Source: an uncultured Verrucomicrobiota bacterium
Lineage (GTDB): Bacteria > Verrucomicrobiota > Kiritimatiellia > CAIQIC01 > Lenti-01
Length of the DNA: 46,830 bases
Assembly (NCBI GenBank): GCA_964567795.1
Contig: CAZMOR010000323.1
Span: 1 to 46,830, forward strand
Direction: 5' to 3'
Under the pieces are notes generated by a model. That model did not search any database, had not been told where the DNA came from, and was given only the letters and a program-made list of their open reading frames with translations. Every line of letters starts with the position of its first letter. The stretch's first letter is position 1. The position numbers and the translations under genes are program-made. Shown one piece after another: positions 3-45,319 of this stretch.

Positions 3-3000
3 AAGCCCGACGACGATTTGTGGCTGAATTACAGCATCTGGGCTACGGCCATGTCCGGGGCTACGCCGCTGGAAGCGGATGAAACGCGGACCGTGACCAT
101 GCGCAATGAGATCTCGGCGATGGCCAACAAGATCTTCCCGAACGGCGCGAACAAGGTGCCGCAGGAATACCTGGACGCCCTGGCGATGTACGAGCCTTCG
201 TGGACAAACACGGCGGATGATGGATCGCCTGGCACCGTCATTGCGACGGAAGGCGTTTGGTACGACCTGGGCAACGTGGGGGCGGGCTTCGACAACAACG
301 GGGACCTGGTGCCGGACCGCAACGCCTGGCTGCAACCTGTGGGCGACCCCGGCCTGTTTGACTCCTCCTGTTTCCGGCTGGTGCACACCTATGCACTGGT
401 GATCGTGAAACTCACCGACGGCACCGAGCAGATCTATAACGTCGAGGACCAACTCTACTTCGAGAACATCCCCGAGGATAACAACGGCGCCGTCGGTTAC
501 GTGCGCTATGAGTTCATGGCCATGCGTCCCGGCTGCTCCAGCACGCTGACGCCGTACCAGGAGGTGGCGTCCGGCTACGACAACGAGAAGTTCAACGGCG
601 ACTATGGGGCCTTCCTCGGCCAGGGGCTGACCAGCCTGGACGCCCACTTGGAAGTCAACAAGACCGTGGACAAGCCGTTTGCCCAGCCCGGGGAGACCCT
701 TTCCTTCACCATTGCCTACACCAACCCCGGACCGGTGACGGTCGGCGATCCGGAAGGCGGGGCGCCGCTGGTCATGCGCGAGCATATTCCCCACGGCACA
801 CTGTATGTCGGCCTGAGTTCCGGCGCCAGCAATTCACTGCCAAGCGGCGTCAGTTCCTACACGATTTTGTATTCAACCAACAACGGCACGACCTGGCAGG
901 CCGCGGAGCCGGCCGATCCGACAAAGATCACCGACGTCCAGTGGTGGCTGAGCGATCCGCTGGCGACGAATGTAGCGGGCTCGGTCAAGCTTCAGGTGAC
1001 GGTCACGACCAATGCCGGCCCGTTCATCACGAACCAGGCCTGCGCCACGATCGCCGGCGGCGCCGACATGGCCTGTGACGAAACCACCACGTATGTGTCG
1101 GGCACCAACCGGCTGGGCGACCTGGTGTGGGCGGACAACGGCGCCGGCGGCGGCGTGCTGGGCAACCAGATGCAGGATGGCACGGAAACGGGCATCTCGA
1201 ACATCACGGTCTGGCTGTACTACGACGCCAACACCAACGGATTCTACGACGCCAGCGATTTGTACTACGCCTCCAACACCACCAGCACTACCGGCTACTA
1301 CATGTTCACCAACCTACCGGACGGCAAGTTCGTCGCGGTGGTGGATATGCGGGATCCCGACCTGCCGGTGGGCTACACTCCGACCACGTTTACCAACCTC
1401 GCCGCGGATCTCGATTCCGCACGCACCAATTCCGCCGCGGTTTCGTTCCTCACCGCAGATTTCGGCTTTGCCCCGGCCTTGACGCTGGTCAAGACGCTCA
1501 CCAGCACCAATGCCATTCGCGAAGGGCAGAACATCACCTTCAACCTGGCGGTTTCCAACAACCTGCCCGGCAACGGGGCCGGTGGGACCTATGCCACCAC
1601 TTATGCGTGGCCGACGAACGGGTATGCCAAAAACACGGAATTTATCGGTTGGACGAATACGCTAGGCGCGCCGGACGGACTTTATTGTTCCAACTATATT
1701 ACAGGTTCGACGACCTTCATGTACCTTTCCAATTTTGTCGCAGCTAGCACTCAAACCGGTACCATCACCAAAGTGGAACTGGTCCGGCAGCGGCTTGTGG
1801 TTCCATCTATTGATAGCGACGACACCGCCGTGCTCCTGGTGCAGCAGCTTTCCCCAGCAACGGTGCTCTTTTCAAACAACCTGCTCATCGCCTCCATGAC
1901 CAACGGGTTCATCGTGGATGTCATCACCAATTCGATTACGTCGTGGGCGAATTTTGCCACCAACATTTCAATTTCCTTGAACGCCAAGAAGAACTCAGGC
2001 GGGGCCGGCAGTGGATATTTAGGATACGACGCGATCGGCTTCCGGATCACCAGCGTCTCGACCGGCGGCACGGGCACGGCCAGCACCACGCTCAACCCGG
2101 TGCCGTTGACGGACCAGTACGACGCGGATAAATTCCAGTTTGTTTCGGCGGTTCCGCCGCAGTCCACCTCCACGACCAACGGCAGCACACCCAACAGCAC
2201 GGGTACGCTGTATTGGGCCAACCTAGGGCCAATTTATCCCGGCGGCACGTCGACCGTCGCGGTGACCTTCCGGTTGCTGAAGCCCGAGAGCTATACCAAC
2301 ATGCTGGCGACGAACATCACCTGGGTGACCAACGCCACGTTCCAGAACGGCGTGCCGGCCAACACGGCCACCAGCAGCGTGGTGGTGACCCAGGCGCCCG
2401 CGGCAAAGGTGGGCGACTACATTTGGCGGGACCTGAACGCGGACGGCATCCAGAACGAGACGAACATGGGCATTGCCTACGTGGCGGTGTCGATCACACC
2501 GCCGGCCGGCATCGATCTTGGCAACGGCGCCGGCGCGGCGATCACCAATTTCACGGATGCCTCCGGCTACTACTCCTTCGAGTCGATTCCGGCGACGGGG
2601 GTCTACACGGTGCGGGTGGTGACGGCGACGCTGCCCGGCGGCTCCGGCACGAACACCTTCGACGAAGACGGCGTGCGGGACCACACGCACGCGGTTTATC
2701 TCGACATCTATTCCACGCCTTCCAGCACAAATAACGTGCACCTGACGACGGACTTCGGGTACCAGACCGGCACGACGATCGAGGGTACGATCTGGCACGA
2801 CTACGATCACGGCATGGAAACCAACCGCGAAGCCGGCGAAGACTGGCTGACGAACGTGACGGTCTACCTGTGCGCCAGTCCGTCGCCCTGCGGCCCGGGC
2901 GCCTCCATCGCCACGAACACCACGACGACCAACGGCTATTTCCGGTTTACGGGCGCCTACACGGGCAGCTACACCGTGCTGGTGGCCACCAACACAGGGA

Positions 3001-6000
3001 TGATGACCAACAGCACGTGGAACCTGTCGTGGGACACGAACGGAACCAACACTCCCAATTACGTCGGCGTCACCGTGGTCACCGGTGGGGTGGCGCGGGC
3101 GGACTTCAGCTACTGGCGCTACGGCAGCTATGCGATCGGCGACACGCTGTATGTCGACTGGGACGGCAACGGCGTGCAGAGCAACGCATGGGAGGAGGGG
3201 ATCTCCAATATCACGGTGTATCTCTATGAAGACGCCAACAGCAACGGCGTGGTGGACCTTGCCACCGATGCGTTCGTCGCCTCCACGGTTACGGCCAGCA
3301 ACGGATATTACGTCTTCACCAATCTGTTCGCAACCAACACATACCTCGTCTACGTGGATCTCGCCGACCCGGACCTGCCGGCAAACTATCTCATCACGGG
3401 GGATCCGTACGGCGCCAAGGACGCGCGCAGCGTGGTGACCCTCACCAACGCCAGCAATTACGCCCAGGACTTTGGATTCCAGCCTTACGGGAGCGGCGCG
3501 ATTGGCGACACGGTCTGGCGGGACCTCAACGCCGACGGGACGCAGTCCGGCGCACAGGAGACCGGAATTTCCAACATTCTCGTCAGCCTGTACGTGGACA
3601 TGAACAAAGACAACAACTATGTGCTGCTGCGCACCACAAACACGAGTTCGAGCGGCACCTATCTGTTCAGTTCGCTGCCGGACGGGAACTACCGCGTGGT
3701 GGTGGATTCCGCCGATACTGACCTCCCGCAAGACGCCTTCGGCAACGTGTATTATCCCAGCACGGCCACGACCAACCAGGTGACCATCAGCGGCGGCAGC
3801 ACCTATCTGGACGCCGATTTCGGCTTTGCTCCCTACGGCGCCATCGGCGACACGGTGTTCTGGGACGCCAACCGCAACGGCACGCAGGATTACAGCGAGA
3901 GCGACGTATCCGGCGCGGTGGTGCGGCTCTACTACGACGGGAACGGCAACGGCATTTATGATCCGGGCGAGACGCTGGCGGCCAGCGCCACCACCGACGT
4001 GGACGGCCTTTATCTCTTTGAAGGCCTGCTGCCGAGCAACTACGTGGTGCTGGTGGTGACCACGAACGGCCCGCTGTTCGGAACGGCCCAGACCGCCGAC
4101 CCGAACTCGGACGGCTATGCCTGCGCCGACACCAACAACCTGGTGCCGTGCGACGACCAGTACGGGTTGTATCTGAACAACGGCCAGAACTTCATGGGCG
4201 CGGACTTTGGCTACGATCCGCCCGGCGTGATCGGCGACTACCTGTGGGTCGACACCGACAACGACGGTGTGCAGGATGCCGGCGAGAGCGGCATTCCCTA
4301 CATTTCAGTGGTGCTGTATTCCAACGGCGTGGCCATCGCCACCAACGAGACGGATGCGGACGGCTACTACTATTTCTCCGGCCTGGCCGACGGCACCTAC
4401 GGCGTGTGGGTGGTGACCAACGACACGGACTTTCCGGCCGGGCTCACGAACACCTGGGCCGCGGACGGCACGTTCGACAATTACGCAACCAACATCGTGA
4501 TTTCCGGCGGTTCCGTGGCCTCCGTGGGCGGATATCCCTGTACCGGCTGCGACCTGTCGATCGACTTCGGGTATCGCTATTCGGGCAACAACAGCCTGAG
4601 CGGGACCATCGGATTCGACGCGGCACCCTTCGACGGCGTGATGAACGGCACGAACACCAGCGGCGTCGCGGCCGGCGAGGCGGCCTATGCCGGGGTCTCC
4701 GTTTATCTGTACCTGTGGAACGACGACGGGGACGGCACCGTCGAGGCCGGGGAGTATGTCTCGATTGCGTCGACGGCCACCGCCACCAACGGCGACTATT
4801 CCTTCACGGGCCTGCCCAGCGGCGACGGCAACGACAAGTACATCGTCGCCAGCTCCGCGCCGGAGGATTACCTGAAGCTCACGACCACCAACGGCTCGAT
4901 CGCCGGGGTGGGCGTGGTCGAGACAACCAACACGGCGGGCAACACGGTTTCGGCCTACCTGACCGTCAACATCGCTCCGGTCATCACCGGCATGGACTTC
5001 GCCTACCGTTCCACGAAGAACTATGACTATGGCGATCTGCCGGAACGCTACCAGACCCTGCTGCCGGACGGGGCACGGCACATCGTCAAGACCTCGAACC
5101 TGTTCCTGGGGGCCACGGTGGACGTGGAGAACAATGGCCAGCCTTCCGCGGGTGCCAACGGCGACGACCTCGCCGGCACGGCCGACGAGGACGGGGTCGC
5201 CATGGTCACCAGCACGATGTGGCACGACGGCACCACCGGCGGCACCGTGCGCGTGACCGTGGGCGCGGGCTCCGGCTGGCTGGTCGGCTACGTTGATTTC
5301 AACAACGACGGTGATTTGCTGGATCCGGGCGAAATGGTTTGCAGCCTGGCGGTGTCGAACACCGGCGGCAACGGGGCGGGCGTCTATACGAACACGTTCG
5401 ATGTTCCGTACGGCACCTTCTCGACCGCCAACTCCACGTCGCTCTATGCACGGTTCCGACTGTTTCCGGCGGAACCGTTCAGCCCCGAGCTGGCGTTTTC
5501 GGGCACGGCCGACAATGGCGAAGTCGAGGATTATCTCTGGCACCTGTCCGTAGTCGGCGACTACGTCTGGATCGATTCCGACGGCGATGGTGCGCAGGAT
5601 GCGGGCGAGCCAGCGCTGGCGGGCGTACGGGTGTTCATTGACCTCAACGCCGATGGCCTCTACCAGACCAATGAACCGGCCGCGACCACCGGCGAGGACG
5701 GTCTTTACGGCATCGGCGGGCTGGTTCCGGGAACCTACACGGTGGCGGTAGACACCAACACGCTCCCGATCGGAGTTTCGCAGACCTACGATTTCGACGG
5801 CATCGGCACTGCGAACAAGGCTTCCATCACCATCGCCACCCTCGGCGAATTCGTGACGGTGGCCGACTTCGGCTACCGGGGCGACGCCACTGTCGGCGAC
5901 CGGGCGTGGTTCGACGCCGACCGCGACGGCATTCAGGACGCCGGCGAAACCAACGGCATCGCCGGACTGCCCGTCGCGCTGCTGGACGCAGCATCCAACG

Positions 6001-9000
6001 TGGTTGTCACGACCACCACCGATGCCTCCGGCAACTATCTGTTTGCCAACATTCCGGCCGGAACCTATCTGGTCCGGTTCGACCTGCGGACCGTGACGAC
6101 CAATGCGAGCGTCACGCTGCCTGATCAGGGTGGCGACGATGCCCTCGACAGCGATGCGACATCGGGCGGAACCGGCGGCTTTGCCTACACGGCTGCGTTT
6201 GCCGCCGGGGCGGGCTCGACCAATTTGACCATAGATCTGGGATTGCGCACAACCTCCACCACGCGCGCGGAAATCGCCGAAGTCTGGGGCGAAGCCGCGG
6301 GGAATGGCGGGCGCATTGTCTGGCGTACCGTTTCGGAATGGAATACGGCCGGATTTGTGGTCTACCGTATCGATCCGGCCTCAGGCGTGGAAGTGCGCTT
6401 GAACGACGTCCTGGTGCCGTCAGCTTTCAATGCGGACGGCGCCACCTATGAACTGGCTGATCCAGAAGCCGTGGCGGGCGGAACCGGCAATTACCGCTTG
6501 GAAGAAATGGAGCTGACTGGTGGCACGCGGGACCTGGGCGCGCAGGCCATCACCTTCGCCCCTGCGCGACCGCGGGCGAAGGCTTTGAAAACTCTGTTGT
6601 CCCGCGAGCAACTATCCACGCCCCGGTTGGCTGGACCTTCGCCGGTTCTGAAAGTTCTGGTGCGGAATGAAGGCCTATATGGCGTTTCTCTGCAGGCCAT
6701 CGCCGCGGGCATGGGTCTCGCCCGGGCGGACGTGCAGGCACTAGCGGAGGCCGGCTCCCTGGAGATTTCGGAACAGGGGAAGGCGGTGCCGGTGATCTAC
6801 GATGCCGCCCGCTCGCGGCTGGTGTTCTATGGCCAGGCGACGGACAACTGGTACACGCGGGACAATGCCTATCTGATCAAGCAAGGTGCCGCCGTTGTGA
6901 TGACGCGGCGGGACCCCGGCGCCGCGGCCGGTGCATCCGTGCTGCCGGCCGTCATGGACTTTGAGGTCGACAAGTATCCGTTTGATAGCGCGGCCATTCG
7001 GCCCGCCGACTTCTACTACTGGGAGTACATTCTCAGCGGGACCAATGCGGCGGCAACCAAAACCTTCCCGCTGGATTTGACGGGATGCGCTGGCGATGTA
7101 ATCCTGACTGTACGGCTGCAGGGGTGGTCCAGCACGACAAACGACCCCGACCATCTAGCGGAGTTCAAATTCAACGGCGCCGGAACGGGCGCAGTCACCT
7201 TCGACGGTCAGGCCGCGGCGACGGCGGAACTGGTGATTCCCGCCGCTTCGGTGTCCAACGGCGTGAACACGCTCTCCGTGAAAGGCACGCTGCTGCCGGG
7301 CCGCGCATTCAGCTATTTCGTAGTGGACGGGATGGAAGCCGCCTTTACCCGCATGGTGGTGCCGGGGGCCGGGACGGCGCATTTCCTGGCGAACGGCGCA
7401 GCGGTGTCGGCGGCAGCGTTTGCGGAACCCCTGGCGGTAGCGTTGGACGCCAACGGCGTTCCGACCTGGCTCGCGGACGCCAACGGCAACTTGCCCGCCA
7501 AGGCTTGGGCAGCAGCAGCGGGCGACGCGCGCTATGCGGTGGCGGAAGCCGATGGCATCCCGTCGCTGACCCCCGAAGCGGTTGCGCCGGCGCCGTGGTT
7601 CCTGGCCGCTACCAACCGCATCGATTATCTGGTTCTGACCTCGCGCGCGCTGGCGAACGAGGCGCAAAAACTGGCGGATTACCGGGCCGGACAGGGGTTG
7701 CGCACCGGCGTGGTGACGTTCGAAGATGCCTGTGACTGGATGGCGGACGGCTTGCGCACACCGGAAGCGATTCCGGCCCTGCTGGCCTATGCGTCTTCCG
7801 TCTGGGCCGAAGCGCCGTGGATGGTGGTGCTGGCGGGCAACGGCCATTACGACTATCTCCAAGCCTTGAGCAACGAAGTGAACCATCTGCCGCCGTTGAT
7901 GATCCAGACCGCGGACGGCATATTCTCCTCGGACAACCTGCTGGCCGATGCGGATGGCGATGGCCTGCCCGACGCCGCCATTGGCCGCTTGCCGGCCCGG
8001 ACGACCAACGAGTTGGCTACGATGATCGCGAAGATCAAGGCATACGAGACGGATTTTGGTTCGGCATGGCAGAACAAGCTGATGTGGGCGGCGGATACGA
8101 ACGATGCCGCGGCCGGGGATTTTGCAGCGGCCAATGCGCGGCTGGCTGCGCTGGCAGATCCCGGGCGCACGAGCGTGTCCGTTGATTTGAATCTGCAATC
8201 CACCAATGCGGCCAAGACCGCGCTTTTAAACGGCTTTAAGGAAGGTGCCGGATTCATCCACTACACCGGCCACGGTGGAGTGAACTTCTGGAGCCCGAAG
8301 AAGCTGCTGACCGCGACGGATGTCAATGCCATGACCAATACGCGGCAGCCGGTGGTTGCGGCGTTGAGCTGCCTGGTGGGGCGGTACGAAGCACCGGCCG
8401 TGGACAGCCTGGGGGAATTGCTGCTGCGTCGGGCCAACGGCGGTGCTGTCGCTGTTTGGGGGCCTTCCGGTCTGTCGCGCAACAATCCGGCGACGGAATT
8501 GGGTGCGGCGTTCTATCGGGCAATTCTCGAGAATGGCGCCGGGACGCTGGGGCTGGCCGTCCTGCAAGCCCGCCGCAGCCTCTTGGGTAATGTGTTCTCG
8601 AGGGACACGTTAGCGGTATACAATTTGCTGGGCGATCCGGCCTTGCGCATTGCCGGCAACCTCGGCGGACAAGCGGCCGATGCCAGTTTTGCACAATGGC
8701 GCTGGCAGCGCTTCAGCCCCGCCGAGCTCGCCGATGCCGGCATCAGCGGTGCAACCGACGGCAATTTCTTCGAATATGCGATGGCGGGCGGCTACGAGGT
8801 TACAGCCGAATTGCCGGAATTCGGATACCCGCTGGCCATGTCCCGGTCGGCGGATGAACCGGGATTCATTTTGCGTTGGAAACGGCGGATCCAGCGGGAT
8901 GACATTGATTACCGTTTGTTTATCTCGGAGGATTTGGCACAATGGACCACTGAGCCGGCGGATGCCCGGACCGTGGGTGTGGAGCCGGACCTGGATGGTG

Positions 9001-9080
9001 TGATGGAAACCGTGCGCACGCGGGTGGACCGCCCGCAAGCGACGCGTATTTTCATTGGGGTCCAAGCCGTTCGTAAATAG
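3..9080 (+). CDS. Giant secreted repeat protein (5-prime partial, >3020 aa) with DUF11-like, SdrD-B/Cna-B-like and GEVED modules and a C-terminal peptidase C25 (gingipain-like) domain
   Basis: The frame is open from nt 3 to the listed TTG at 18, so the gene almost certainly starts upstream of the window. DUF11-like segments are present (LEVNKTVDKPFAQPGETLSFTIAYTNPGPV; LTLVKTLTSTNAIREGQNITF). There are about ten SdrD-B-like units and a GEVED motif (NGEVEDY, about nt 5514-5534). The C25-type catalytic motifs are FIHYTGHGG (His codon 8271-8273) and VAALSCLVG (Cys codon 8370-8372). No PEP-CTERM-like tail is seen. Confidence 0.85.
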   Translation, partial: KPDDDLWLNYSIWATAMSGATPLEADETRTVTMRNEISAMANKIFPNGANKVPQEYLDALAMYEPSWTNTADDGSPGTVIATEGVWYDLGNVGAGFDNNGDLVPDRNAWLQPVGDPGLFDSSCFRLVHTYALVIVKLTDGTEQIYNVEDQLYFENIPEDNNGAVGYVRYEFMAMRPGCSSTLTPYQEVASGYDNEKFNGDYGAFLGQGLTSLDAHLEVNKTVDKPFAQPGETLSFTIAYTNPGPVTVGDPEGGAPLVMREHIPHGTLYVGLSSGASNSLPSGVSSYTILYSTNNGTTWQAAEPADPTKITDVQWWLSDPLATNVAGSVKLQVTVTTNAGPFITNQACATIAGGADMACDETTTYVSGTNRLGDLVWADNGAGGGVLGNQMQDGTETGISNITVWLYYDANTNGFYDASDLYYASNTTSTTGYYMFTNLPDGKFVAVVDMRDPDLPVGYTPTTFTNLAADLDSARTNSAAVSFLTADFGFAPALTLVKTLTSTNAIREGQNITFNLAVSNNLPGNGAGGTYATTYAWPTNGYAKNTEFIGWTNTLGAPDGLYCSNYITGSTTFMYLSNFVAASTQTGTITKVELVRQRLVVPSIDSDDTAVLLVQQLSPATVLFSNNLLIASMTNGFIVDVITNSITSWANFATNISISLNAKKNSGGAGSGYLGYDAIGFRITSVSTGGTGTASTTLNPVPLTDQYDADKFQFVSAVPPQSTSTTNGSTPNSTGTLYWANLGPIYPGGTSTVAVTFRLLKPESYTNMLATNITWVTNATFQNGVPANTATSSVVVTQAPAAKVGDYIWRDLNADGIQNETNMGIAYVAVSITPPAGIDLGNGAGAAITNFTDASGYYSFESIPATGVYTVRVVTATLPGGSGTNTFDEDGVRDHTHAVYLDIYSTPSSTNNVHLTTDFGYQTGTTIEGTIWHDYDHGMETNREAGEDWLTNVTVYLCASPSPCGPGASIATNTTTTNGYFRFTGAYTGSYTVLVATNTGMMTNSTWNLSWDTNGTNTPNYVGVTVVTGGVARADFSYWRYGSYAIGDTLYVDWDGNGVQSNAWEEGISNITVYLYEDANSNGVVDLATDAFVASTVTASNGYYVFTNLFATNTYLVYVDLADPDLPANYLITGDPYGAKDARSVVTLTNASNYAQDFGFQPYGSGAIGDTVWRDLNADGTQSGAQETGISNILVSLYVDMNKDNNYVLLRTTNTSSSGTYLFSSLPDGNYRVVVDSADTDLPQDAFGNVYYPSTATTNQVTISGGSTYLDADFGFAPYGAIGDTVFWDANRNGTQDYSESDVSGAVVRLYYDGNGNGIYDPGETLAASATTDVDGLYLFEGLLPSNYVVLVVTTNGPLFGTAQTADPNSDGYACADTNNLVPCDDQYGLYLNNGQNFMGADFGYDPPGVIGDYLWVDTDNDGVQDAGESGIPYISVVLYSNGVAIATNETDADGYYYFSGLADGTYGVWVVTNDTDFPAGLTNTWAADGTFDNYATNIVISGGSVASVGGYPCTGCDLSIDFGYRYSGNNSLSGTIGFDAAPFDGVMNGTNTSGVAAGEAAYAGVSVYLYLWNDDGDGTVEAGEYVSIASTATATNGDYSFTGLPSGDGNDKYIVASSAPEDYLKLTTTNGSIAGVGVVETTNTAGNTVSAYLTVNIAPVITGMDFAYRSTKNYDYGDLPERYQTLLPDGARHIVKTSNLFLGATVDVENNGQPSAGANGDDLAGTADEDGVAMVTSTMWHDGTTGGTVRVTVGAGSGWLVGYVDFNNDGDLLDPGEMVCSLAVSNTGGNGAGVYTNTFDVPYGTFSTANSTSLYARFRLFPAEPFSPELAFSGTADNGEVEDYLWHLSVVGDYVWIDSDGDGAQDAGEPALAGVRVFIDLNADGLYQTNEPAATTGEDGLYGIGGLVPGTYTVAVDTNTLPIGVSQTYDFDGIGTANKASITIATLGEFVTVADFGYRGDATVGDRAWFDADRDGIQDAGETNGIAGLPVALLDAASNVVVTTTTDASGNYLFANIPAGTYLVRFDLRTVTTNASVTLPDQGGDDALDSDATSGGTGGFAYTAAFAAGAGSTNLTIDLGLRTTSTTRAEIAEVWGEAAGNGGRIVWRTVSEWNTAGFVVYRIDPASGVEVRLNDVLVPSAFNADGATYELADPEAVAGGTGNYRLEEMELTGGTRDLGAQAITFAPARPRAKALKTLLSREQLSTPRLAGPSPVLKVLVRNEGLYGVSLQAIAAGMGLARADVQALAEAGSLEISEQGKAVPVIYDAARSRLVFYGQATDNWYTRDNAYLIKQGAAVVMTRRDPGAAAGASVLPAVMDFEVDKYPFDSAAIRPADFYYWEYILSGTNAAATKTFPLDLTGCAGDVILTVRLQGWSSTTNDPDHLAEFKFNGAGTGAVTFDGQAAATAELVIPAASVSNGVNTLSVKGTLLPGRAFSYFVVDGMEAAFTRMVVPGAGTAHFLANGAAVSAAAFAEPLAVALDANGVPTWLADANGNLPAKAWAAAAGDARYAVAEADGIPSLTPEAVAPAPWFLAATNRIDYLVLTSRALANEAQKLADYRAGQGLRTGVVTFEDACDWMADGLRTPEAIPALLAYASSVWAEAPWMVVLAGNGHYDYLQALSNEVNHLPPLMIQTADGIFSSDNLLADADGDGLPDAAIGRLPARTTNELATMIAKIKAYETDFGSAWQNKLMWAADTNDAAAGDFAAANARLAALADPGRTSVSVDLNLQSTNAAKTALLNGFKEGAGFIHYTGHGGVNFWSPKKLLTATDVNAMTNTRQPVVAALSCLVGRYEAPAVDSLGELLLRRANGGAVAVWGPSGLSRNNPATELGAAFYRAILENGAGTLGLAVLQARRSLLGNVFSRDTLAVYNLLGDPALRIAGNLGGQAADASFAQWRWQRFSPAELADAGISGATDGNFFEYAMAGGYEVTAELPEFGYPLAMSRSADEPGFILRWKRRIQRDDIDYRLFISEDLAQWTTEPADARTVGVEPDLDGVMETVRTRVDRPQATRIFIGVQAVRK
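1125..6240 (+). repeat. Tandem array of about ten diverged SdrD-B/Cna-B-like domain repeats (~110-125 codons each) inside the giant CDS
   Basis: A recurring protein-level unit starts near nt 1125, 2409, 2780, 3133, 3498, 3840, 4226, 4600, 5553 and 5890. The pattern is [AV][IV]GDxxWxDxNxDGxQ..E.G[IL]..[IV]xVxLY followed by TDxxGxYxFxxLxxGxYxV. The array is interrupted by the GEVED-containing segment at about 5020-5540. The repeats are diverged at DNA level and the boundaries are approximate. Confidence 0.7.
7620..8651 (+). other. Peptidase C25 (gingipain/PorU-type cysteine peptidase) domain of the giant CDS
   Basis: The domain runs from IDYLVLTSRALANEAQKLADYRAGQGL through GRLPARTTNELATMIAKIKAYE, HYTGHGG (His) and ALSCLVGRYE (Cys), and ends at LLGDPALRI. 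Order and spacing are as in C25-family enzymes. Boundaries are approximate. Confidence 0.75.
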
Positions 9081-39985: not shown

Positions 39986-41089
39986 TCAGCGCTTCCAGCG
40001 GTATCCGGTGCCGTACAACCCGGCGCGCAGCGGACGCAGGAACCAATACAAGCCGCGCAGGGAAGGCGGCAGGGAAATCCACCGGAAATCGCCGTCGCCG
40101 GGCGTGAGCCACCGGCGGGCGCGATAATACAGGATTTCGCGGCGGACCATGAACTGTTCGTGGAACCGGCGCAGTTCCGGGCCGTTCAACGGCCGGGCGG
40201 TGCCCGCGAGCAGTTGGCTGGCCTCGGTCATCCAGGACCGCGGGGCCGGAGGCAGCGGCTCGCGGGTGAGACCCGGTCCGAAAATTTCATTCGCCACGCC
40301 GCAGCCGGCGGCCAGGGCTTGTTCCGCGAACGGGCAGCGCGCCGCCAGCGCCTGGGCGTCCGGCAGGCTGTCCGGATGGCGGACCAGCAGGCCGGCGATA
40401 TCCACCACCCAGGCCAGGCGGGCCCAGCCGTGCCAGGCCGCGTGCAGGCAGCCCAGCAGCAGGTGCAGGGCCGGAGTGGGGGCCCGCACCACGGCCGCAT
40501 CCAGCGTTTGCCCGGCAAAACCGTGTTGCCAGCTCCGGTTGCACAGGCAGGGCCACGGGTAGTGCGGCGGGAAGAAGCGGTGGTTCACCTCCACCATGAA
40601 ACCGGCGGGATGCAGGAACGTGACGCCCCAGCCGTAATGCCACAAATGGGCCACCCGCCGCGGATCCTCGGCCTCGGGCAGATAACCTTCGCTTTTCAGG
40701 ATGGCCGCGAGTTCCGGAAAATCCCCGGGCCGGCACAGGAAATCGAGATCGTCAAAACTGCGCAGTCCCGGTTCGGGCCAGGCTTGCACCGCCAGCGCGG
40801 GACCTTTCACCTGTGCCAGGAACTGCACGTGCGGCGCCAGGCGCGCATGCAGCCGTTCGGCCTCCTGCGTCAGCCGCGACGAATGATGCGCCTGGCCATA
40901 GACGGCCGCGAGACTGGCGGCGCCGGCTTCGGGAATACCTGCCTGCAGGAGTCCCAGCACGCGGTGCCGCCGGGTCCAGGCCATCAGCCGTTCGCGGGAC
41001 TCATGCGGCGGGCGCTGCAATTCACCGGCCGGCGGCAAGCCGTGCAGCTTGCGGAATGCCTGGCGGCAGAATGGCAGGAAGTCGTCCAT
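39986..41089 (-). CDS. Uncharacterised nucleotidyltransferase-family protein (NTP_transf_5-like)
   Basis: FDDLDFLCRPGDFPELAAILKSEGYLPE...HLWHYGW...VEVNHRFFP is the pattern I associate with PF14907-type proteins. I chose the ATG at 41089 (MDDFLPF...); the ORF in the track extends to 41131. It is convergent with the acyltransferase gene, with an 18-nt gap. Confidence 0.7.
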   Translation of the reverse strand: MDDFLPFCRQAFRKLHGLPPAGELQRPPHESRERLMAWTRRHRVLGLLQAGIPEAGAASLAAVYGQAHHSSRLTQEAERLHARLAPHVQFLAQVKGPALAVQAWPEPGLRSFDDLDFLCRPGDFPELAAILKSEGYLPEAEDPRRVAHLWHYGWGVTFLHPAGFMVEVNHRFFPPHYPWPCLCNRSWQHGFAGQTLDAAVVRAPTPALHLLLGCLHAAWHGWARLAWVVDIAGLLVRHPDSLPDAQALAARCPFAEQALAAGCGVANEIFGPGLTREPLPPAPRSWMTEASQLLAGTARPLNGPELRRFHEQFMVRREILYYRARRWLTPGDGDFRWISLPPSLRGLYWFLRPLRAGLYGTGYRWKR

Positions 41090-41223
41090 TAAAGCGCTTG
41101 TGCCCGGGTTGCCGGGCGGCGTCAATCCCAAAGACGCTTATTGTCTATCGCAAGACCTTACTCGCTGGCGCGGCCGGCCGGCGGCCCCCATGCGGGGGCT
41201 CGTGGCTCATGCTCCAACGCCGG

Positions 41224-41279
41224 TTTTTCCACACAATGGAAAAACTTTCAGGAATTTTTCCACACAATGGAAAAACTTT
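41224..41279 (+). repeat. Perfect 25-nt direct repeat (two copies, 31-bp period)
   Basis: tttttccacacaatggaaaaacttt occurs at 41224-41248 and again at 41255-41279, separated by caggaa. Confidence 0.9.
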
Positions 41280-41326
41280 GATGTTTTTTCCATAGTGTGG
41301 AAAAAAGTTTTCCACAGTGTGGAAAA
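41224..41326. promoter_or_regulatory. Array of DnaA-box-like 9-mers (TTTTCCACA) organised as four palindromic units
   Basis: Perfect TTTTCCACA occurs at 41225-41233 (+), 41256-41264 (+), 41296-41304 (-), 41308-41316 (+) and 41318-41326 (-). Degenerate copies are at 41235-41243 (-, TTTTCCATT), 41266-41274 (-, TTTTCCATT) and 41286-41294 (+, TTTTCCATA). The units are centred near 41234, 41265, 41295 and 41317, giving spacings of 31, 30 and 22 bp. Unit 4 (41308-41326) is a perfect 19-bp palindrome, TTTTCCACAgTGTGGAAAA. The array lies in the divergent intergenic region between the NTase gene and mnmA. Confidence 0.6.
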
Positions 41327-41404
41327 ATGATGAGCCGCGATTCCCCGCACGGGGGCAAAGAAAAGTGGCGGGGGGCGGCCGGGCGGGGTAGACTGCCCGG
41401 CGAC

Positions 41405-42508
41405 ATGTCTGGGAAGCAACAGAGCGTGGCGATCGGCCTGAGCGGCGGCGTGGATTCGAGCGTCGCCGCCTGGCTGCTCAAGCGCGACGGCTGGCGGGTG
41501 ACCGGCCTGACGATGAGCATCTGGGACGGCTCCGTGCCGATTCCGGACCTGGGCATTTCGGGCTGTTTCGGGCCGGGGGAGGCGCGGGACCTGGAGGCGG
41601 CGCAGAACATCGCGGCGCGGATCGGGATCGAGCACAGCGTGGTGCCGCTGGCGGAGGAATACAAGCAGACGGTGCTGGAATATTTCCGGGCGGAGTATCT
41701 CGCGGGACGCACGCCGAACCCCTGCGTGCGCTGCAACCAGCGGATGAAGTTCGGCTTCCTGCTGGAGCAGGCGCGGAAGCTGGGCGTCGAGTTCGAGAAG
41801 TTCGCCACGGGCCACTATGCGCGGGTGCGGTTCGACGAAGCGAGCGGTCGCTGGCAGCTGTTGCGGGGCCGGGACGCGGAAAAGGATCAGTCGTATTTCC
41901 TGTCGCGGCTGAAGCAGGCGCAGCTGGCGCTGCTGGTGTTCCCGCTGGGCGAGCTGCGCAAGGGGGAGGTCAAGCAGCTCGCGCGCGAACTGGGCTGGGA
42001 CGATTTGGCGGAAAAAGACGAGAGCCAGGATTTCATCGAGTGCGACGATTACTCGGTGCTGTTCCGGCCGGGGGACGCGCAGCCGGGCGAATTCGTGACG
42101 CGGGCGGGAAAGGTGCTGGGGAAGCACCGGGGCATCATTCACTACACGATCGGGCAGCGGCAGGGACTTGGCCTGGGCGGCGGCGGCACGCCGTGGTATG
42201 TGCTGGAGATCGATGCGCCGCGCAACCGCGTGGTGGTGGGGACGCGGGAGGAGCTGTACACGCGCGAACTGGCGGCGGGCGACTTGAACTGGGTGGCGCT
42301 GGGGGAACCGCCGGCCGGGCCGCTGCGGTGCCAGGTGCAGATCCGCCAGCGGCACAAGGCCGCGGCGGCGACCGTGACGGCCGCGCCGGGCGGCCGGCTC
42401 CAGGCCGTGTTCGACGAACCGCAGCTTTCCGTGACGCCGGGTCAGGTGTCGGTGTTCTACGACGGCGACGTGGTTTTGGCGTCGGGAACCATCGAAAAAC
42501 CCCTGTGA
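41405..42508 (+). CDS. mnmA: tRNA 2-thiouridine(34) synthase
   Basis: MSGKQQSVAIGLSGGVDSSVAAWLL is a PP-loop. RTPNPCVRCNQRMKFGFLLE, DQSYFL and GQRQGLGLGGG are also present. I chose the ATG at 41405; the ORF-track start at 41297 lies inside the repeat array. Confidence 0.9.
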   Translation: MSGKQQSVAIGLSGGVDSSVAAWLLKRDGWRVTGLTMSIWDGSVPIPDLGISGCFGPGEARDLEAAQNIAARIGIEHSVVPLAEEYKQTVLEYFRAEYLAGRTPNPCVRCNQRMKFGFLLEQARKLGVEFEKFATGHYARVRFDEASGRWQLLRGRDAEKDQSYFLSRLKQAQLALLVFPLGELRKGEVKQLARELGWDDLAEKDESQDFIECDDYSVLFRPGDAQPGEFVTRAGKVLGKHRGIIHYTIGQRQGLGLGGGGTPWYVLEIDAPRNRVVVGTREELYTRELAAGDLNWVALGEPPAGPLRCQVQIRQRHKAAAATVTAAPGGRLQAVFDEPQLSVTPGQVSVFYDGDVVLASGTIEKPL

Positions 42509-42533: not shown

Positions 42534-43991
42534 ATGCTAGAAAACGGGCCCATGGAGTCGTTTTCGCTTAAAAACCGGAATCTGATCGAACAAGCGGTGG
42601 GCATTGCCCTGGTGGCGCTGCTGGTCTTCTTCTGCCTGCTCGTCCTGAAGCCGTTCGTGTCGGCCATCCTGTGGGCGGCGATCCTGGTGTTTGCCTCGTG
42701 GCCGGTGTTCGGATTCGTGAAGCGGCGGCTGGCGGGAGGCCACGCCGCGGCGGCTTCGGGACTGATGACGCTGCTGTGGGCCCTGCTGCTGGCGGTGCCG
42801 CTGTGGATGCTGGCGAAGTCGTCGCTGGACATGGCCGCCTGGGGCCTGGAACGCCTGCGCGACTTGCGCGAAACGGGCATTCCCAAGCTGGTGGCGGCGC
42901 TGCAGGCGCATCCGTTTTTCGGCGATTACGCCGATCCGGTGCGGGCGGCGCTGGGCGAGATTTTCAGCGACACGGAGCGCCTGACGCGCTGGGGGGCGGA
43001 TGCCTCGAAGGTGAGCGCGGCGTGGCTGGTGAAGCGCGGCGTAAGCCTCGGCTACGGCCTGTTCCAGGTCTGTTTCAGCCTGGTGTTCATGTTCTTCTTC
43101 TACCTGCAGGGCGAGGCGCTGGCCGACCGGACGAGCGCGCTGATGGAGCGGGTGGCGGGGCCGTTCATGGCGCGGCTGCGGCACCGGATCGCGCTGACGC
43201 TGAACACGGTAGTGCGCGGCACGGTCGGCACGGCCTTCGTGCAGGCCTTGGCGGCGGCGGCGGGCTTCGCCCTGTTCCAAGTGCCGAACGCGGGGTTGTT
43301 CGCGGTGCTGACGTTCGTGCTGGGGCTGCTGCCGATGGGGCCGCCGCTGCTGTGGGTGCCGGTGGGCCTGTGGCTGCTGTCGAACGGACGCATGGGCGAT
43401 GGCATCGGAATGCTGGCCTACGGCGGCGTGGTGATCAGCGGCATCGACAACGTGGTCCGGCCGATCCTGATCGCCGGTTCGGTGGATTTCGGCGCGGTGC
43501 TGCGGCGGCGCCGGGCGCTGGCGACAGGCGTGGTCACTGGCGTGCTGGTCGGCGCGGGCTTCGCGTTTGCGGGCCTGCCGTGGGGCCTGGGCGTGATCGT
43601 GGCCGCGGCGGTGGGGCTGACACCCTTTGCCACCGCCGGCGTGGTGGCGTTCCTGGGCGGCGCCATCTGGCTGTTCGCGACCGGGGAATTGATCGACGGC
43701 GTCTGGCTGATCCTGTTCGCCCTCGGGCTGATGGTGGCGACGCCGGTGCTGGCGACGCTGGTCCGGCGCTGGGTGCCGGAGGCGCCACGGCCGGCGGCGG
43801 CGGTCCGGCCGGCCGAGGAAGGCGTGCCGTTCGTCCTGATGGTCGTCGGCGTGGCGGGCGGCATGCTGGCGTTCGGATTCATCGGGCTGTTCCTGGGGCC
43901 GGTGCTGCTGGCGCTGGGATATGACCTGGTGCGCGAACTGGCGCAAGGCGCGGCGGAGGAGGCGGGGGCGCAGGAAAGGCGGAAGCCATGA
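42534..43991 (+). CDS. AI-2E family transporter (UPF0118/PerM-like) with an internal ~105-aa hydrophobic insertion
   Basis: Characteristic segments are FVLGLLPMGPPLLWVPVGLWLL, GIDNVVRPILIAGS and the terminal VPFVLMVVGVAGGMLAFGFIGLFLGPVLLAL. The start could be 42534 or 42552. Confidence 0.75.
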   Translation: MLENGPMESFSLKNRNLIEQAVGIALVALLVFFCLLVLKPFVSAILWAAILVFASWPVFGFVKRRLAGGHAAAASGLMTLLWALLLAVPLWMLAKSSLDMAAWGLERLRDLRETGIPKLVAALQAHPFFGDYADPVRAALGEIFSDTERLTRWGADASKVSAAWLVKRGVSLGYGLFQVCFSLVFMFFFYLQGEALADRTSALMERVAGPFMARLRHRIALTLNTVVRGTVGTAFVQALAAAAGFALFQVPNAGLFAVLTFVLGLLPMGPPLLWVPVGLWLLSNGRMGDGIGMLAYGGVVISGIDNVVRPILIAGSVDFGAVLRRRRALATGVVTGVLVGAGFAFAGLPWGLGVIVAAAVGLTPFATAGVVAFLGGAIWLFATGELIDGVWLILFALGLMVATPVLATLVRRWVPEAPRPAAAVRPAEEGVPFVLMVVGVAGGMLAFGFIGLFLGPVLLALGYDLVRELAQGAAEEAGAQERRKP

Positions 43992-45319
43992 CATTGAAGG
44001 ACCGGCTGGGCGGTTTACGGGAATTCGTGCAGCATGCGCTCGGGGCGCTGCCGGGCGACGAGCGCGGCGGCAGCCTGCCGGCGCGCATCATCCGCGTGGG
44101 GCACATGCTGTTCCGCGGGTACGTGGACGACGATCTGACGATCCATGCGTCGTCGCTGACGTTCGTGACGCTGACGTCGCTGGTGCCGATCCTGGCGGTC
44201 GGGTTGGCGCTCTACAAGGGCCTCGGCATGGGCGACGAACAGCTGGCTTCGATTTCCCGGATGGAATGGTTCGCGCAGATGCCCGCGCAATGGCAGGAAT
44301 TCGTGCAGAAGGTCCTCGACATCGTCAACGCCACCAACTTCTCGGCTTTGGGCGGAATCGGGCTGGCGTTCTTCGTGCTGACGGCGGTGCTGCTGCTGGC
44401 GAACGTGGAGAAAAGCTTCAACCGGGTCTGGGGCGTGGACAAGAACCGGAGCCTGCTGCGGCAGATCACGAACTACACGAGCGTGCTGGTGCTGGTGCCG
44501 CTGCTGATCGGCGTGGCCGGGGCGCTGAAGGCGCAGATCGCGTTCAAGGAGCAGTTCCTGGGCATCGACACCAATGCCTGGACGCAGAATTTGGCGGCGT
44601 TCGGCATCCTGTGGCTGGCCATCGGTTTCTTGTACATGTTCGTGCCGAACACGCGGGTGCGGCTGCGGCCGGCGTTCCTGAGCAGCCTGCTGACAACGGC
44701 GATCTTCCTCGGCTGGATCCGGATGTTCACCGTGCTGCAGGCGGGAGTGACGAACTACAACCGCATCTACGGGGCGTTTGCGGCCGTGCCGGTGTTCCTG
44801 CTGTGGATGTACGTGACATGGGTGATCCTGCTGCTGGGCGCGGAATTCGCCTTCGCGCTGCAGAACTCGGACACCTACCGGCTGGAAGGCGCGGCGGACA
44901 CGGCCAGCATGCGCGCGCGCATCCTGGTGGCGCTGATGATCCTGCGGCGGGCGGGGCGGGCGATGGAAGGCGGCAAGGGCCCCTTCGACGCGGCGGCCTT
45001 TGCCCGCCAGAACAAGGCGCCGATCCGTTTGATCAACTCGGTCGTGGCGGTGCTGGTCAAGCGCGGCTACCTGGCGCAGGTGGCCAGCCGCGACGCGGGG
45101 TATGTCCTGATGCGCTCGGCGGAGGCGATCCGGATCCGCGACCTGGTGTCGGAACTGATGCACGAAGGCGGGGGGCACGCCGAAATCGAAAGCGTGCTGA
45201 GGCTGGACGAGCCGCTCAAGGAGACGCTGGGGAAGATCGAAAAGGGCGTGGCCCAGGGCTTCGGGGACTTGACGCTGGCGGACATGGTTGTGGCGGCCGT
45301 GCCGGAGAAGATGGCGTAA
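43988..45319 (+). CDS. YihY/BrkB (virulence factor BrkB / former RNase BN) family membrane protein with C-terminal soluble extension
   Basis: HASSLTFVTLTSLVPILAV and YGAFAAVPVFLLWMYVTWVILLLGAEFAFA are present. ATGA overlap with the upstream stop at 43988. Confidence 0.8.
   Translation: MTLKDRLGGLREFVQHALGALPGDERGGSLPARIIRVGHMLFRGYVDDDLTIHASSLTFVTLTSLVPILAVGLALYKGLGMGDEQLASISRMEWFAQMPAQWQEFVQKVLDIVNATNFSALGGIGLAFFVLTAVLLLANVEKSFNRVWGVDKNRSLLRQITNYTSVLVLVPLLIGVAGALKAQIAFKEQFLGIDTNAWTQNLAAFGILWLAIGFLYMFVPNTRVRLRPAFLSSLLTTAIFLGWIRMFTVLQAGVTNYNRIYGAFAAVPVFLLWMYVTWVILLLGAEFAFALQNSDTYRLEGAADTASMRARILVALMILRRAGRAMEGGKGPFDAAAFARQNKAPIRLINSVVAVLVKRGYLAQVASRDAGYVLMRSAEAIRIRDLVSELMHEGGGHAEIESVLRLDEPLKETLGKIEKGVAQGFGDLTLADMVVAAVPEKMA

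Follow-up and report, generated by a model that had tools for sequence, protein, structure and literature searches.

The intergenic region upstream of mnmA in an uncultured Verrucomicrobiota bacterium holds a dense array of the 9-mer TTTTCCACA. The 9-mer fits the DnaA-box consensus and is arranged there in palindromes, which raises the question of whether the array is a site for DnaA, an operator for one or both of the genes next to it, or something else. We analysed it within the whole 46,830-nt contig stretch on which it lies (the window), and in related genomes and metagenomes.

Structure of the array

The array consists of four 19-bp palindromes between 41225 and 41326, with unit spacings of 31, 30 and 22 bp (Table 1). 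The five exact copies of TTTTCCACA start at 41225 (+), 41256 (+), 41296 (−), 41308 (+) and 41318 (−); a near copy, TTTTCCATA, is found at 41286 (+), and units 1 and 2 each carry a further near copy, TTTTCCATT, on the minus strand. The rest of the window contains only six one-mismatch matches to TTTTCCACA, and these are scattered. Units 1 and 2 share a 25-nt exact direct repeat (41224-41248 and 41255-41279), which points to duplication of a unit. Unit 3 is an inverted orientation of units 1 and 2 (95% complementary), and unit 4 follows it at a distance of 22 bp. The pattern TTTTCCANNNNNTGGAAAA is matched four times, against 0.01 expected from 100 shuffles, and the GC content is 0.32 in the array compared to 0.64 in the window. 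The initial annotation had described the five exact and three near copies, the perfect palindrome of unit 4, the 25-nt repeat, the three spacings and the local AT-richness, and each of these was reproduced.

Table 1. Features of the array region and its flanking genes
Feature	Position	Strand	Sequence	Basis
Uncharacterised nucleotidyltransferase gene	39986-41089	−		Pfam NTP_transf_5, E=2e-30; start codon 41089-41087
Left arm of terminal inverted repeat	41184-41210	.	GCCCCCATGCGGGGGCTCGTGGCTCAT	85% complementary
Unit 1	41225-41243	.	TTTTCCAcacaaTGGAAAA	Repeat and pattern searches
Unit 2	41256-41274	.	TTTTCCAcacaaTGGAAAA	Repeat and pattern searches
Unit 3	41286-41304	.	TTTTCCAtagtgTGGAAAA	Repeat and pattern searches
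Unit 4, perfect 19-bp palindrome	41308-41326	.	TTTTCCAcagtgTGGAAAA	
Right arm of terminal inverted repeat	41330-41356	.	ATGAGCCGCGATTCCCCGCACGGGGGC	Inverted-repeat search
Promoter-like block of mnmA	41357-41394	+	AAAGAAAAGTGGCG, 18 nt, TAGACT	Alignment, 13 relatives
mnmA, tRNA 2-thiouridylase gene	41405-42508	+		Pfam tRNA_Me_trans, E=2e-60

A 19-bp word shared across Kiritimatiellae

The same kind of array occurs throughout the class Kiritimatiellae. The conserved word of the family is TTTTCCA-N5-TGGAAAA, a 19-bp sequence in which the two 7-bp half-sites are near-invariant across the class, while the 5-bp centre varies by lineage. Information content is high in the half-sites only, and the outer flanks vary across the family. 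A purely selfish repeat would not usually have half-sites conserved class-wide. A half-site opens with TTTTCCA in 752 cases out of 874 from relatives, and it continues with CA in 220 (25%); the remainder have CG, AT, TA, TG, TT and others at positions 8-9. The rumen and Kiritimatiellales dialects read TTTTCCAAT and TTTTCCAAG. The five copies of TTTTCCACA in the window are a by-product of the CAC/GTG centre of its lineage.

Arrays contain two to eight units, and 293 of 315 spacings (93%) are 22, 30 or 31 bp. These distances correspond to two or three helical turns, which places all half-sites on one side of the helix. In hybrid half-sites, TTTCCA-N5-CGTAAA, the hairpin is lost but the geometry is kept. 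A 75-nt module of three units is approximately 90% identical, spacers included, across 15 unrelated loci, and this asymmetric module is oriented at random relative to genes.

A pair of units spaced by 22 bp was found at no fewer than 117 loci. The 80 loci listed are all from Kiritimatiellae or ‘Verrucomicrobiota’ MAGs, three of the records being labelled ‘uncultured bacterium’ only, and each MAG contributes at least 6-7 contigs. Unselected DNA of Kiritimatiellae type contains eight arrays in 406 kb (about 20 per Mb, an estimate that draws on partly orthologous loci), against none in 1.55 Mb from other taxa. A scan of IMG/VR for the paired unit returned two matches and no phage link: one is a chance match on a contig of 40% GC, and the other a single unit after pgk on a contig of 59% GC. 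Literature searches on palindromic repeats of Kiritimatiellae gave no relevant description.

Genomic context of the arrays

Genes were called with a home-made codon-usage caller. On these calls, the 95 intergenic arrays comprise 59 in tandem, 19 in convergent and 17 in divergent regions, where the background is 334, 54 and 78. Many arrays begin a few bp past a stop codon. The array lies upstream of 112 and downstream of 116 of the 228 flanking genes, which are unrelated housekeeping genes. Pfam analysis of 113 flanking proteins identified no recurrent regulator, transposase or ParB, nor any gene for a binding protein, transposase or RAYT next to the arrays.

Some arrays in relatives are situated within genes, in frame, inside TatD, amidohydrolase, TilS and ABC permease domains. 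The amidohydrolase arrays are found in two orthologues, with four and two units, and the TatD array forms an 11-residue insertion compared to E. coli YcfH. The copy in the window is itself intergenic, unlike these RPE-like insertions.

The copy in the window and its neighbours

The array in the window is bracketed by a 27-nt inverted repeat (41184-41210 and 41330-41356, 85% complementary), a feature absent from the initial annotation. The left arm, GCCCCCATGCGGGGGCTCGTGGCTCAT, holds a GC-rich hairpin. Among metagenome contigs sharing the element, divergence sets in at 41185 on the left and at 41355/41356 on the right, so that the inverted ends coincide with the divergence points of multicopy contigs. 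The summed contig depth over the array is 240-7200 in four metagenomes from wastewater or rivers, where single-copy depth is 4-25, and the contigs break at the array. With its inverted ends of 27 nt, the copy in the window spans 173 bp (41184-41356), and this element is multicopy in its source metagenomes.

Comparison of the 173-bp element with PLSDB plasmids and INPHARED phages by BLAST gave no match. The inverted-repeat arm, scanned against JGI metagenomes, produced one chance match within a coding region, and a scan of the whole window for tRNAs found none. The arm could conceivably be what is left of a tRNA 3′ end. Among other MAGs, a related motif, GAGCCGCGATTCCCCGC..GGGGG, follows the arrays at about ten loci, and k-mer analysis of array flanks across MAGs detected mild enrichment of G-runs and no universal terminus. 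Inspection of the ends at 41184 and 41356 by eye showed no target-site duplication, and the left flank is non-syntenic in relatives. The lack of a visible duplication, and of any general MITE-type terminus given the unconserved outer flanks, sits awkwardly with mobility of the repeat.

The nucleotidyltransferase gene, on the divergent side, is the last gene of a cluster of about 30 kb for polysaccharide biosynthesis and export. On the other side, mnmA has orthologues of 71-84% identity in Kiritimatiellae-type MAGs. Its promoter-like block is kept in most of the relatives in the 13-relative alignment. The ATG lies 10 nt past this block, and the mRNA therefore probably has no leader or only a very short one. 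A consensus sigma-70 scan of the intergenic region gave no match, the promoter-like block included. Homology to the window starts at 41353-41359 in L001, L003 and L007, and inside mnmA, at 41413-41435, in the other thirteen relatives. The copy in the window abuts the conserved mnmA promoter on one side and has a variable polysaccharide island on the other. Any effect on mnmA would be incidental, for instance through a stretch of AT-rich DNA or bound protein just upstream of the −35 region. Among RNA-seq runs, the locus was seen in one metatranscriptome only, at 5% of words.

DnaA, operator and RNA explanations

The initial annotation identified TTTTCCACA as a reported variant of the DnaA box. 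This is borne out, because the Ori-Finder paper gives it as the box of Synechococcus and proposes it for Chlamydiae (PMC2275245). The boxes in the dnaA-dnaN region of this clade read TTGTCCACA, TTATCCACA and TTTTCCACA, the last of these in loci L202 and L204; they overturned an earlier candidate feature, an A at position 3 of the clade's box. Positions 6-9 of the consensus TT(A/T)TNCACA of Schaper and Messer are reportedly required. The array might on these grounds be a DnaA-box cluster, serving as a second origin, as a titration site similar to datA, or for control of mnmA by DnaA: five exact boxes lie within 103 bp, the box is both published as species-specific and present in the clade's own dnaA-dnaN region, and one rumen MAG has an intergenic array upstream of dnaA. 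We nevertheless regard this as very improbable. Positions 8-9, which define the box, are free in the family, and the rumen and Kiritimatiellales dialects read TTTTCCAAT and TTTTCCAAG. Clusters such as oriC, datA and the DBCs of B. subtilis share with the array a sequence that fits TTWTNCACA, but they are far fewer than about 20 per Mb, whereas the repeat has a much higher copy number, with copies inside ORFs, and is unlinked to dnaA or GC skew. Its units are palindromic pairs one bp apart, unlike the dnaA-dnaN boxes, which are on the same strand and non-palindromic, in a conserved region with an AT-rich stretch. An array is present in just one of seven regions upstream of dnaA, and the array upstream of mnmA is not conserved. 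No DnaA homologue was found in the window, and the GC skew stays positive throughout the window from 5 kb onwards, with no sign change at 41.2 kb. The arguments against an origin raised at the outset were therefore right, and the suggestion of a DnaA-titrating or DnaA-regulated cluster, or an origin, has to be abandoned, given that the motif is a common dispersed repeat. The array is neither an origin nor a dedicated DnaA cluster, and the clade's origin is likely to lie between dnaA and dnaN, with same-strand boxes of the TTGTCCACA type. DnaA may bind the window copy incidentally, because TTTTCCACA appears from the dnaA-dnaN sequences to be an acceptable box in this clade.

The initial annotation also offered a dimeric regulator recognising TTCCACA-N-TGTGGAA. 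The idea of a palindrome for a dimer was the better half of that reading, although the word proves to be TTTTCCA-N5-TGGAAAA; the idea of a local operator fared worse. Dedicated control of mnmA and/or the divergent nucleotidyltransferase gene by a local dimeric transcription factor, with the array as its operator, would fit palindromes that are phased on one helix face in a divergent intergenic region and stop about 40 bp short of the conserved −35-like element of mnmA. However, the word adjoins more than 200 unrelated genes, upstream and downstream equally often and with no promoter bias, and it is also found in convergent intergenic regions (19 of the 95 arrays) and within ORFs. In 16 relatives, the 420 nt preceding mnmA contain no array, although the promoter-like block persists in most of the relatives that were aligned, and no regulator gene adjoins the array in the window. 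An operator dedicated to mnmA can be dismissed, and one for either neighbour has very little to recommend it. It is hardly more probable that the array acts as RNA, with the row of hairpins terminating transcription, stabilising 3′ ends (a role proposed for REP) or forming a small RNA. Single units can fold as RNA at −6 to −10 kcal/mol, the whole element of 191 nt folds at −99 kcal/mol (z = −9.5), one unit matches a loose terminator pattern, and the frequent position of array starts just after stop codons would suit such a role. On the other hand, the stems are AU-rich and weak; the sequence of the half-sites is conserved beyond mere pairing; deviations are mostly one-sided, and the stem is broken in hybrid CCA/ACG units; modules are oriented at random relative to transcription; and folding gives no rationale for the strict 22/31 spacing. 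The copy in the window lies between divergent genes and is upstream of both. A search of 40500-42000 against Rfam at E ≤ 10 identified no family, giving only spurious sub-threshold hairpin matches of the miRNA/snoRNA type.

Comparison with known repeats

The REP/BIME elements of enterobacteria and pseudomonads are similar in being high-copy short palindromes with two alternating spacer classes and variable numbers of units, located between genes in any orientation, often within operons and just past stop codons. They differ in that they are species-specific, whereas the 7-bp half-sites described here are invariant class-wide, and in that our units are AT-rich in a genome of 64% GC and have weak stems. 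REP super-families carry a GTAG or CGTC head (PMC3733652), which is missing from our consensus, and no transposase was present among the 113 flanking proteins. Nor is the repeat strictly extragenic, since there are arrays in frame and single units in AlaS and Mfd.

The in-frame arrays in TatD, amidohydrolase, TilS and ABC permease genes resemble RPEs and intragenic MITEs; RPEs enter unrelated metabolic or housekeeping genes in frame and give rise to additional loops in the translated protein (PMC10969869). RPEs are however single elements of about 150 bp encoding a conserved peptide, whereas the repeat forms arrays of a 19-bp unit, variable in number, read in all three frames and mostly intergenic. 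The copy in the window is like a MITE in being non-coding and 173 bp long, with 27-nt terminal inverted repeats that end where the contigs diverge. It is unlike one in that its termini are not shared by the family (the motif resembling the inverted repeat occurs at only about ten array ends), no target-site duplication is seen, no parent IS is known for it, and its interior consists of phased units that resemble binding sites.

A probable interspersed repeat and a possible genome-wide signal

We conclude that the array is most probably one copy of a clade-specific interspersed repeat family of Kiritimatiellae. The family is apparently an undescribed short repeat with features of REP/BIME, MITE and RPE elements. 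A homodimeric sequence-specific protein would recognise the half-sites, and neighbouring dimers would touch along one face of the helix, perhaps binding cooperatively. The binder may be an architectural protein of the host, or an enzyme that mobilises the repeat. Arrays would enlarge through duplication of units and then be copied elsewhere, the new arrays landing intergenically regardless of gene orientation, or in frame within genes.

It is possible, though we think it unlikely, that the word instead serves as a signal in the DNA itself, on which selection or drive acts throughout the genome. It would be either similar to an uptake signal or a chromosome-organising site in the manner of parS and NBS, the arrays being its multimerised intergenic form. 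In the sister order, Kiritimatiellales, there are at least 120 occurrences of the exact 19-mer TTTTCCAAGGTTTGGAAAA, no fewer than 14 of them in one MAG. Among the matches listed, 70 of 126 copies are inside long ORFs, with a strong frame bias (FQTLE is read in 35). The ORFs that carry single units are bona fide and unrelated (AlaS, Mfd, MnmE, ALDH, sulfatases, GH2 and PreP), and the units in them arose via substitution and not by insertion; in Mfd the unit is kept at the orthologous position at 76% protein identity. Placement by substitution does not suit a mobile repeat, as it makes insertion alone insufficient, and it suggests selection or drive on the DNA word. In-gene single units are however rare in the lineage of the window.

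The USS of Pasteurellaceae and the DUS of Neisseriaceae are likewise present in hundreds of copies per genome, coding sequence included, with frame bias and lineage dialects, which the lineage-specific centres resemble; the class-wide conservation of the half-sites also favours a signal. The likeness in over-representation and frame bias applies to the Kiritimatiellales MAGs. USS and DUS are asymmetric 9-12-mers, non-palindromic and not known to form phased arrays. The parS sites of ParB and the NBS of Noc are palindromic like the word, and NBS are also dispersed, genes included. Similarity to the half-site TTTTCCAC is seen in the parS half-site of TGTTTCACGTGAAACA, and also in TGTTCCAC and the NBS half-site ATTTCCC. 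However, parS and NBS are contiguous sequences of 14-16 bp, unlike a 19-bp word with a free 5-bp centre, and the repeat is far more numerous and occurs in 22/31-spaced arrays. Canonical parS, allowing up to two mismatches, is absent from 1.23 Mb of Kiritimatiellae loci, which favours this account. A tblastn search with Spo0J and Soj found no ParB-like gene, and an orphan Soj-like ParA in locus L165 only. The account is further weakened by the fact that no receptor or binding protein was found for the word, and by the in-frame array insertions and 90%-identical modules, which suggest copy-and-paste mobility. We are doubtful that TTTTCCA-N5-TGGAAAA is the recognition word of a putative class-specific DNA-binding protein with a genome-wide role. 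Such a protein could organise or segregate the chromosome, much as ParB-parS or Noc-NBS do, or serve self-recognition during DNA uptake. If it were so, selection or drive on the word would be strong enough to rewrite the amino acids of housekeeping enzymes and to keep phased multi-site platforms between genes, and the array in the window would be a functional loading platform for four dimers at the boundary of the polysaccharide island.

Implications

An interspersed repeat of this kind has practical consequences. With its perfect matches to a DnaA box in an AT-rich island, the array would be mis-annotated as an origin or part of a DnaA regulon by tools that count boxes. The repeat disrupts metagenome assemblies. 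It also marks Kiritimatiellae contigs sharply, having no match in 1.55 Mb from other taxa.

For the biology of the class, one 19-bp word is phased at two and three helical turns, appears to have been copied between genes and, in frame, into enzymes, and has entered coding sequence by substitution. Our literature searches found no description of a combination of REP/BIME, RPE and USS traits. This combination implies a putative sequence-specific protein and, since there are cultured relatives, Kiritimatiella and Pontiella, the binder should be easily pulled down.

The array in the window

The bulk of the window is one plus-strand cluster for polysaccharide biosynthesis and export, with products that include Wza-like, Wzc-like, Wzy and ABC-2/Wzt proteins and many glycosyltransferases. 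The array lies between the final gene of this cluster and mnmA (see the table). The BrkB-family gene to the right of mnmA encodes a BrkB/YihY-family membrane protein (43988-45316, plus strand) with a weak C-terminal Rrf2-like match of 26.8 bits, below the Pfam cut-off of 30. At the left, a giant ORF of 3020 residues (18-9080, plus strand) runs past the window edge. The habitat of the source organism is wastewater.

The sequence of the array is as described in the initial annotation. It contains five exact copies of TTTTCCACA and one TTTTCCATA, and only six scattered one-mismatch matches are found in the rest of the 46.8-kb window. The denominator common to all four units is TTTTCCA-N5-TGGAAAA (four matches, against 0.01 expected from shuffles), and the GC content is 0.32, compared to 0.64 for the window. 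A further feature, new here, is a 27-nt inverted repeat that flanks the array on both sides. The whole 173-bp element can be folded as a single long hairpin (-99 kcal/mol, z = -9.5), as would be the case for any nested inverted repeat.

Features of the mnmA locus and of the candidate origin
Feature	Position	Description
NTP_transf_5 gene	39986-41089	minus strand; final gene of the polysaccharide cluster
Intergenic region		315 bp, between the NTP_transf_5 gene and mnmA; contains the array
Inverted-repeat arms	41184-41210 / 41330-41356	27 nt each
Four palindromic units	starts 41224, 41255, 41285, 41307 (within 41224-41327)	spacings 31, 30, 22
Promoter-like block of mnmA	41357-41394	upstream of ATG
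mnmA	ATG at 41405	followed by AI-2E transporter gene and BrkB-family gene
Candidate oriC, Kiritimatiellae MAGs	~100-400 nt downstream of dnaA stop	loci L198, L200-L204

Dispersal of the repeat

MnmA relatives (71-84% identity) come from Kiritimatiellae or 'Verrucomicrobiota' MAGs, which have the same palindromes located elsewhere. A scan with TTTCCANNNNNTGGAAAANNNNTTTCCA, using one genome per species, found at least 117 loci, with hits on no fewer than 6-7 separate contigs in each MAG; among the matches listed, 80 of 80 loci were from Kiritimatiellae/'Verrucomicrobiota' MAGs, including three labelled only 'uncultured bacterium'. In loci picked without regard to arrays, 406 kb of Kiritimatiellae-type DNA contains eight arrays, or approximately 20 per Mb. 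There were no arrays and no perfect units in 1.55 Mb from other taxa, a control that included about 70 Verrucomicrobiia dnaA loci. The flanks had a depth of 4-25 in four metagenomes, compared to 240-7200 for the summed depth of array-matching contigs. Metagenome contigs break at the array, and their points of divergence concentrate at 41185 and 41355/6, the two outer limits of the inverted repeat in the window element.

Anatomy of the family

The 144 arrays compared have 315 unit spacings, of which 293 measure 22, 30 or 31 bp. Information content comes close to its maximum in the two half-sites, TTTTCCA and TGGAAAA, whereas the 5-bp centre, the spacers and the sequence flanking the arrays carry little. 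TTTTCCA starts 752 of the 874 half-sites, while the two bases that follow this position vary (CA 220, CG 148, AT 132, TA 61, TG 52, TT 50; n = 874). The unit centres depend on lineage, being cacaa/cagtg in the window lineage, atcat/atggt in rumen MAGs and aggtt in Kiritimatiellales.

One MAG (CALMNW) has a second type of half-site, TTTTACG / CGTAAAA (L009:6887-6989; also loci L084, L087 and L160), which occurs both as homo-palindromes and as CCA/ACG hybrids (TTTTCCA-N5-CGTAAAA), with an unchanged 31/31/22 architecture. The hybrid units preserve the geometry and disrupt the hairpin, which argues for recognition of the half-sites by a protein, rather than selection for a stem. The TTTTACG half-sites would be consistent with a pair of paralogous binding proteins, or with relaxed specificity. 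A 22-bp pair places four hexamers at 11-bp intervals, and the 31-bp spacing adds one further turn, so that the half-sites all lie on one side of the helix; this suggests that dimers may bind the arrays cooperatively along one helix face.

Array positions relative to genes

Genes were called using a codon-usage caller trained on the Pfam-supported genes of the window. The intergenic contexts of the arrays are tandem in 59 cases, convergent in 19 and divergent in 17 (background 334, 54 and 78, respectively), and the array is upstream of the flanking gene in 112 cases and downstream in 116. An array often occupies the entire intergenic region, leaving just a few bp to the adjacent stop or start codon. 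The neighbouring genes are unrelated housekeeping genes (pheS, mreC, tRNA synthetases, glycosyltransferases and others), with no recurrent regulator or transposase among them. Some positions are orthologous between MAGs; the one upstream of pheS, for instance, is shared by five MAGs and has three to eight units. A 75-nt three-unit module, approximately 90% identical including its spacers, recurs at 15 loci unrelated to one another, across many MAGs, in random orientation relative to genes. These contexts and module copies fit a copy-and-paste repeat, and are at odds with both a promoter operator and an RNA element of fixed orientation.

Other sequence elements were seen beside arrays. A perfect palindrome of another sequence, CTATCACTTATAATTATAAGTGATAG, directly adjoins arrays at two unrelated loci of MAG CAYNHA (L140 ~1450-1480 and L115 ~4150-4185), and may represent a separate repeat or operator family. 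In three MAGs (L088, L104, L120), orthologous arrays have G-rich heptad-like repeats (GGTTCAG / GGGTTCG) just upstream of them.

Copies inside genes

In the window lineage, arrays of two to four units occur in frame within single-domain genes: in an amidohydrolase (same site in two MAGs, with four and two units), TatD, TilS and an ABC permease. Compared with E. coli YcfH, the array adds 11 residues to TatD. In-frame insertion into genes has been described for Rickettsia palindromic elements, and the in-gene arrays here show the same behaviour (PMC10969869).

The sister order Kiritimatiellales contains the exact 19-mer TTTTCCAAGGTTTGGAAAA at least 120 times, with at least 14 copies in one MAG, and perfect non-seed units number approximately 218 per Mb in its loci. 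Long ORFs hold 70 of 126 TTTTCCAAGGTTTGGAAAA copies, with a strong frame bias, 35 of them encoding x-F-Q-T-L-E-K. These ORFs are bona fide and unrelated (AlaS, Mfd, MnmE, aldehyde dehydrogenase, sulfatases, GH2, PreP), and the Mfd word is at the identical position in two MAGs with 76% identity. In alignments the word substitutes residues without a gap, as in aldehyde dehydrogenase (GFFQTLEKT vs DLITALSKT) and AlaS (IFQTLEK vs YFEAIQK). Insertion does not account for copies of this substitution type, and they point to selection or drive on the DNA word itself.

The element upstream of mnmA

Sixteen relatives are syntenic with the window from mnmA rightwards, at 73-86% nucleotide identity. For L001, L003 and L007, homology sets in at 41353-41359, where the right arm has its outer end; for the remaining 13 it sets in within mnmA (41413-41435). 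All 16 lack an array upstream of mnmA, and they have different upstream neighbours. The start points and the array-less relatives indicate that the element is lineage-specific and located where synteny breaks off, immediately upstream of the putative mnmA promoter. The promoter-like block is common to most of 13 aligned relatives (from L001-L018 and L042), in the order A-rich, GTGGCG, 17-18 nt, TAGGAT or TAGACT, then ATG 6-10 nt on; its -35-like element is not TTGACA-like. Given the position of the ATG only 6-10 nt past the -10-like hexamer, the mnmA mRNA is probably leaderless or near-leaderless.

An arm-like motif, GAGCCGCGATTCCCCGC..GGGGG, comes after arrays at approximately 10 loci in other MAGs, without being a universal array terminus. 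In L004 and L005, AT-rich tandem TTCAAT-type short repeats occur instead of the array, ~150-330 nt upstream of mnmA, together with a GC hairpin followed by GGCTCAT, similar to the left arm of the window element. AT-rich stretches with TTAATTAA are found upstream of mnmA in L006, L010, L012 and L016. The site seems prone to accumulate AT-rich repeats.

DnaA boxes, origins and the nature of the family

The initial annotation had proposed a DnaA-box cluster or part of an origin, noting correctly that TTTTCCACA is a reported box variant, published for Synechococcus and proposed for Chlamydiae (PMC2275245). We compared the dnaA-dnaN regions of six Kiritimatiellae MAGs (DnaA identity 72-76% in five; the sixth is the query's own). 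The spacer contains one to four same-strand boxes (TTGTCCACA, TTATCCACA or TTTTCCACA), a conserved block ~GATGTCCACAnTGTCCACAGGACATACTGATAAGAC in five of six loci (degenerate only in L198), and an AT-rich stretch ahead of dnaN; it is a likely origin in these MAGs. Box position 3 is free in this region, and it is therefore plausible that the 9-mers in the window are DnaA boxes, with incidental DnaA binding possible. What characterises the repeat family is the dyad together with positions 1-7; positions 8-9 are not part of its definition. Its copy number, in-gene copies and palindromic pairing are unlike any DnaA-box cluster. Of seven regions upstream of dnaA, only a single one contains an array. 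From ~5 kb to the window end GC skew stays positive, with no change of sign at 41.2 kb, in contrast to the first 5 kb of the giant ORF, where it is negative. As had been noted, dnaA is absent from the window (no homologue by tblastn, with E. coli DnaA as the query). The interpretation as a DnaA cluster or origin is not supported; the dispersed loci, their density and the multicopy metagenome depth identify the motif as a common dispersed repeat, the outcome that the initial annotation had named as refuting the DnaA reading.

An exact TTTTCCACA lies inside dnaA itself, ~670-690 nt into the gene, at the same position in four MAGs (L200, L203, L204, L205). L165:3317-4060 (minus strand) encodes a Soj-like ParA that shares 53% identity with B. 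subtilis Soj. A metallo-beta-lactamase-fold gene and argS come after it, and there is no adjoining ParB; a search of 1.23 Mb of Kiritimatiellae loci detected no canonical parS.

The alternative in the initial annotation, an operator array for a dimeric regulator recognising TTCCACA-N-TGTGGAA, was probably right in kind, as a palindrome for a dimeric protein, but not in its scope or exact motif. Literature searches found no published description of the family, which is apparently undescribed. It is best described as a class-wide family of interspersed palindromic-unit arrays, with traits resembling those of REP/BIME, MITE, RPE and USS elements.
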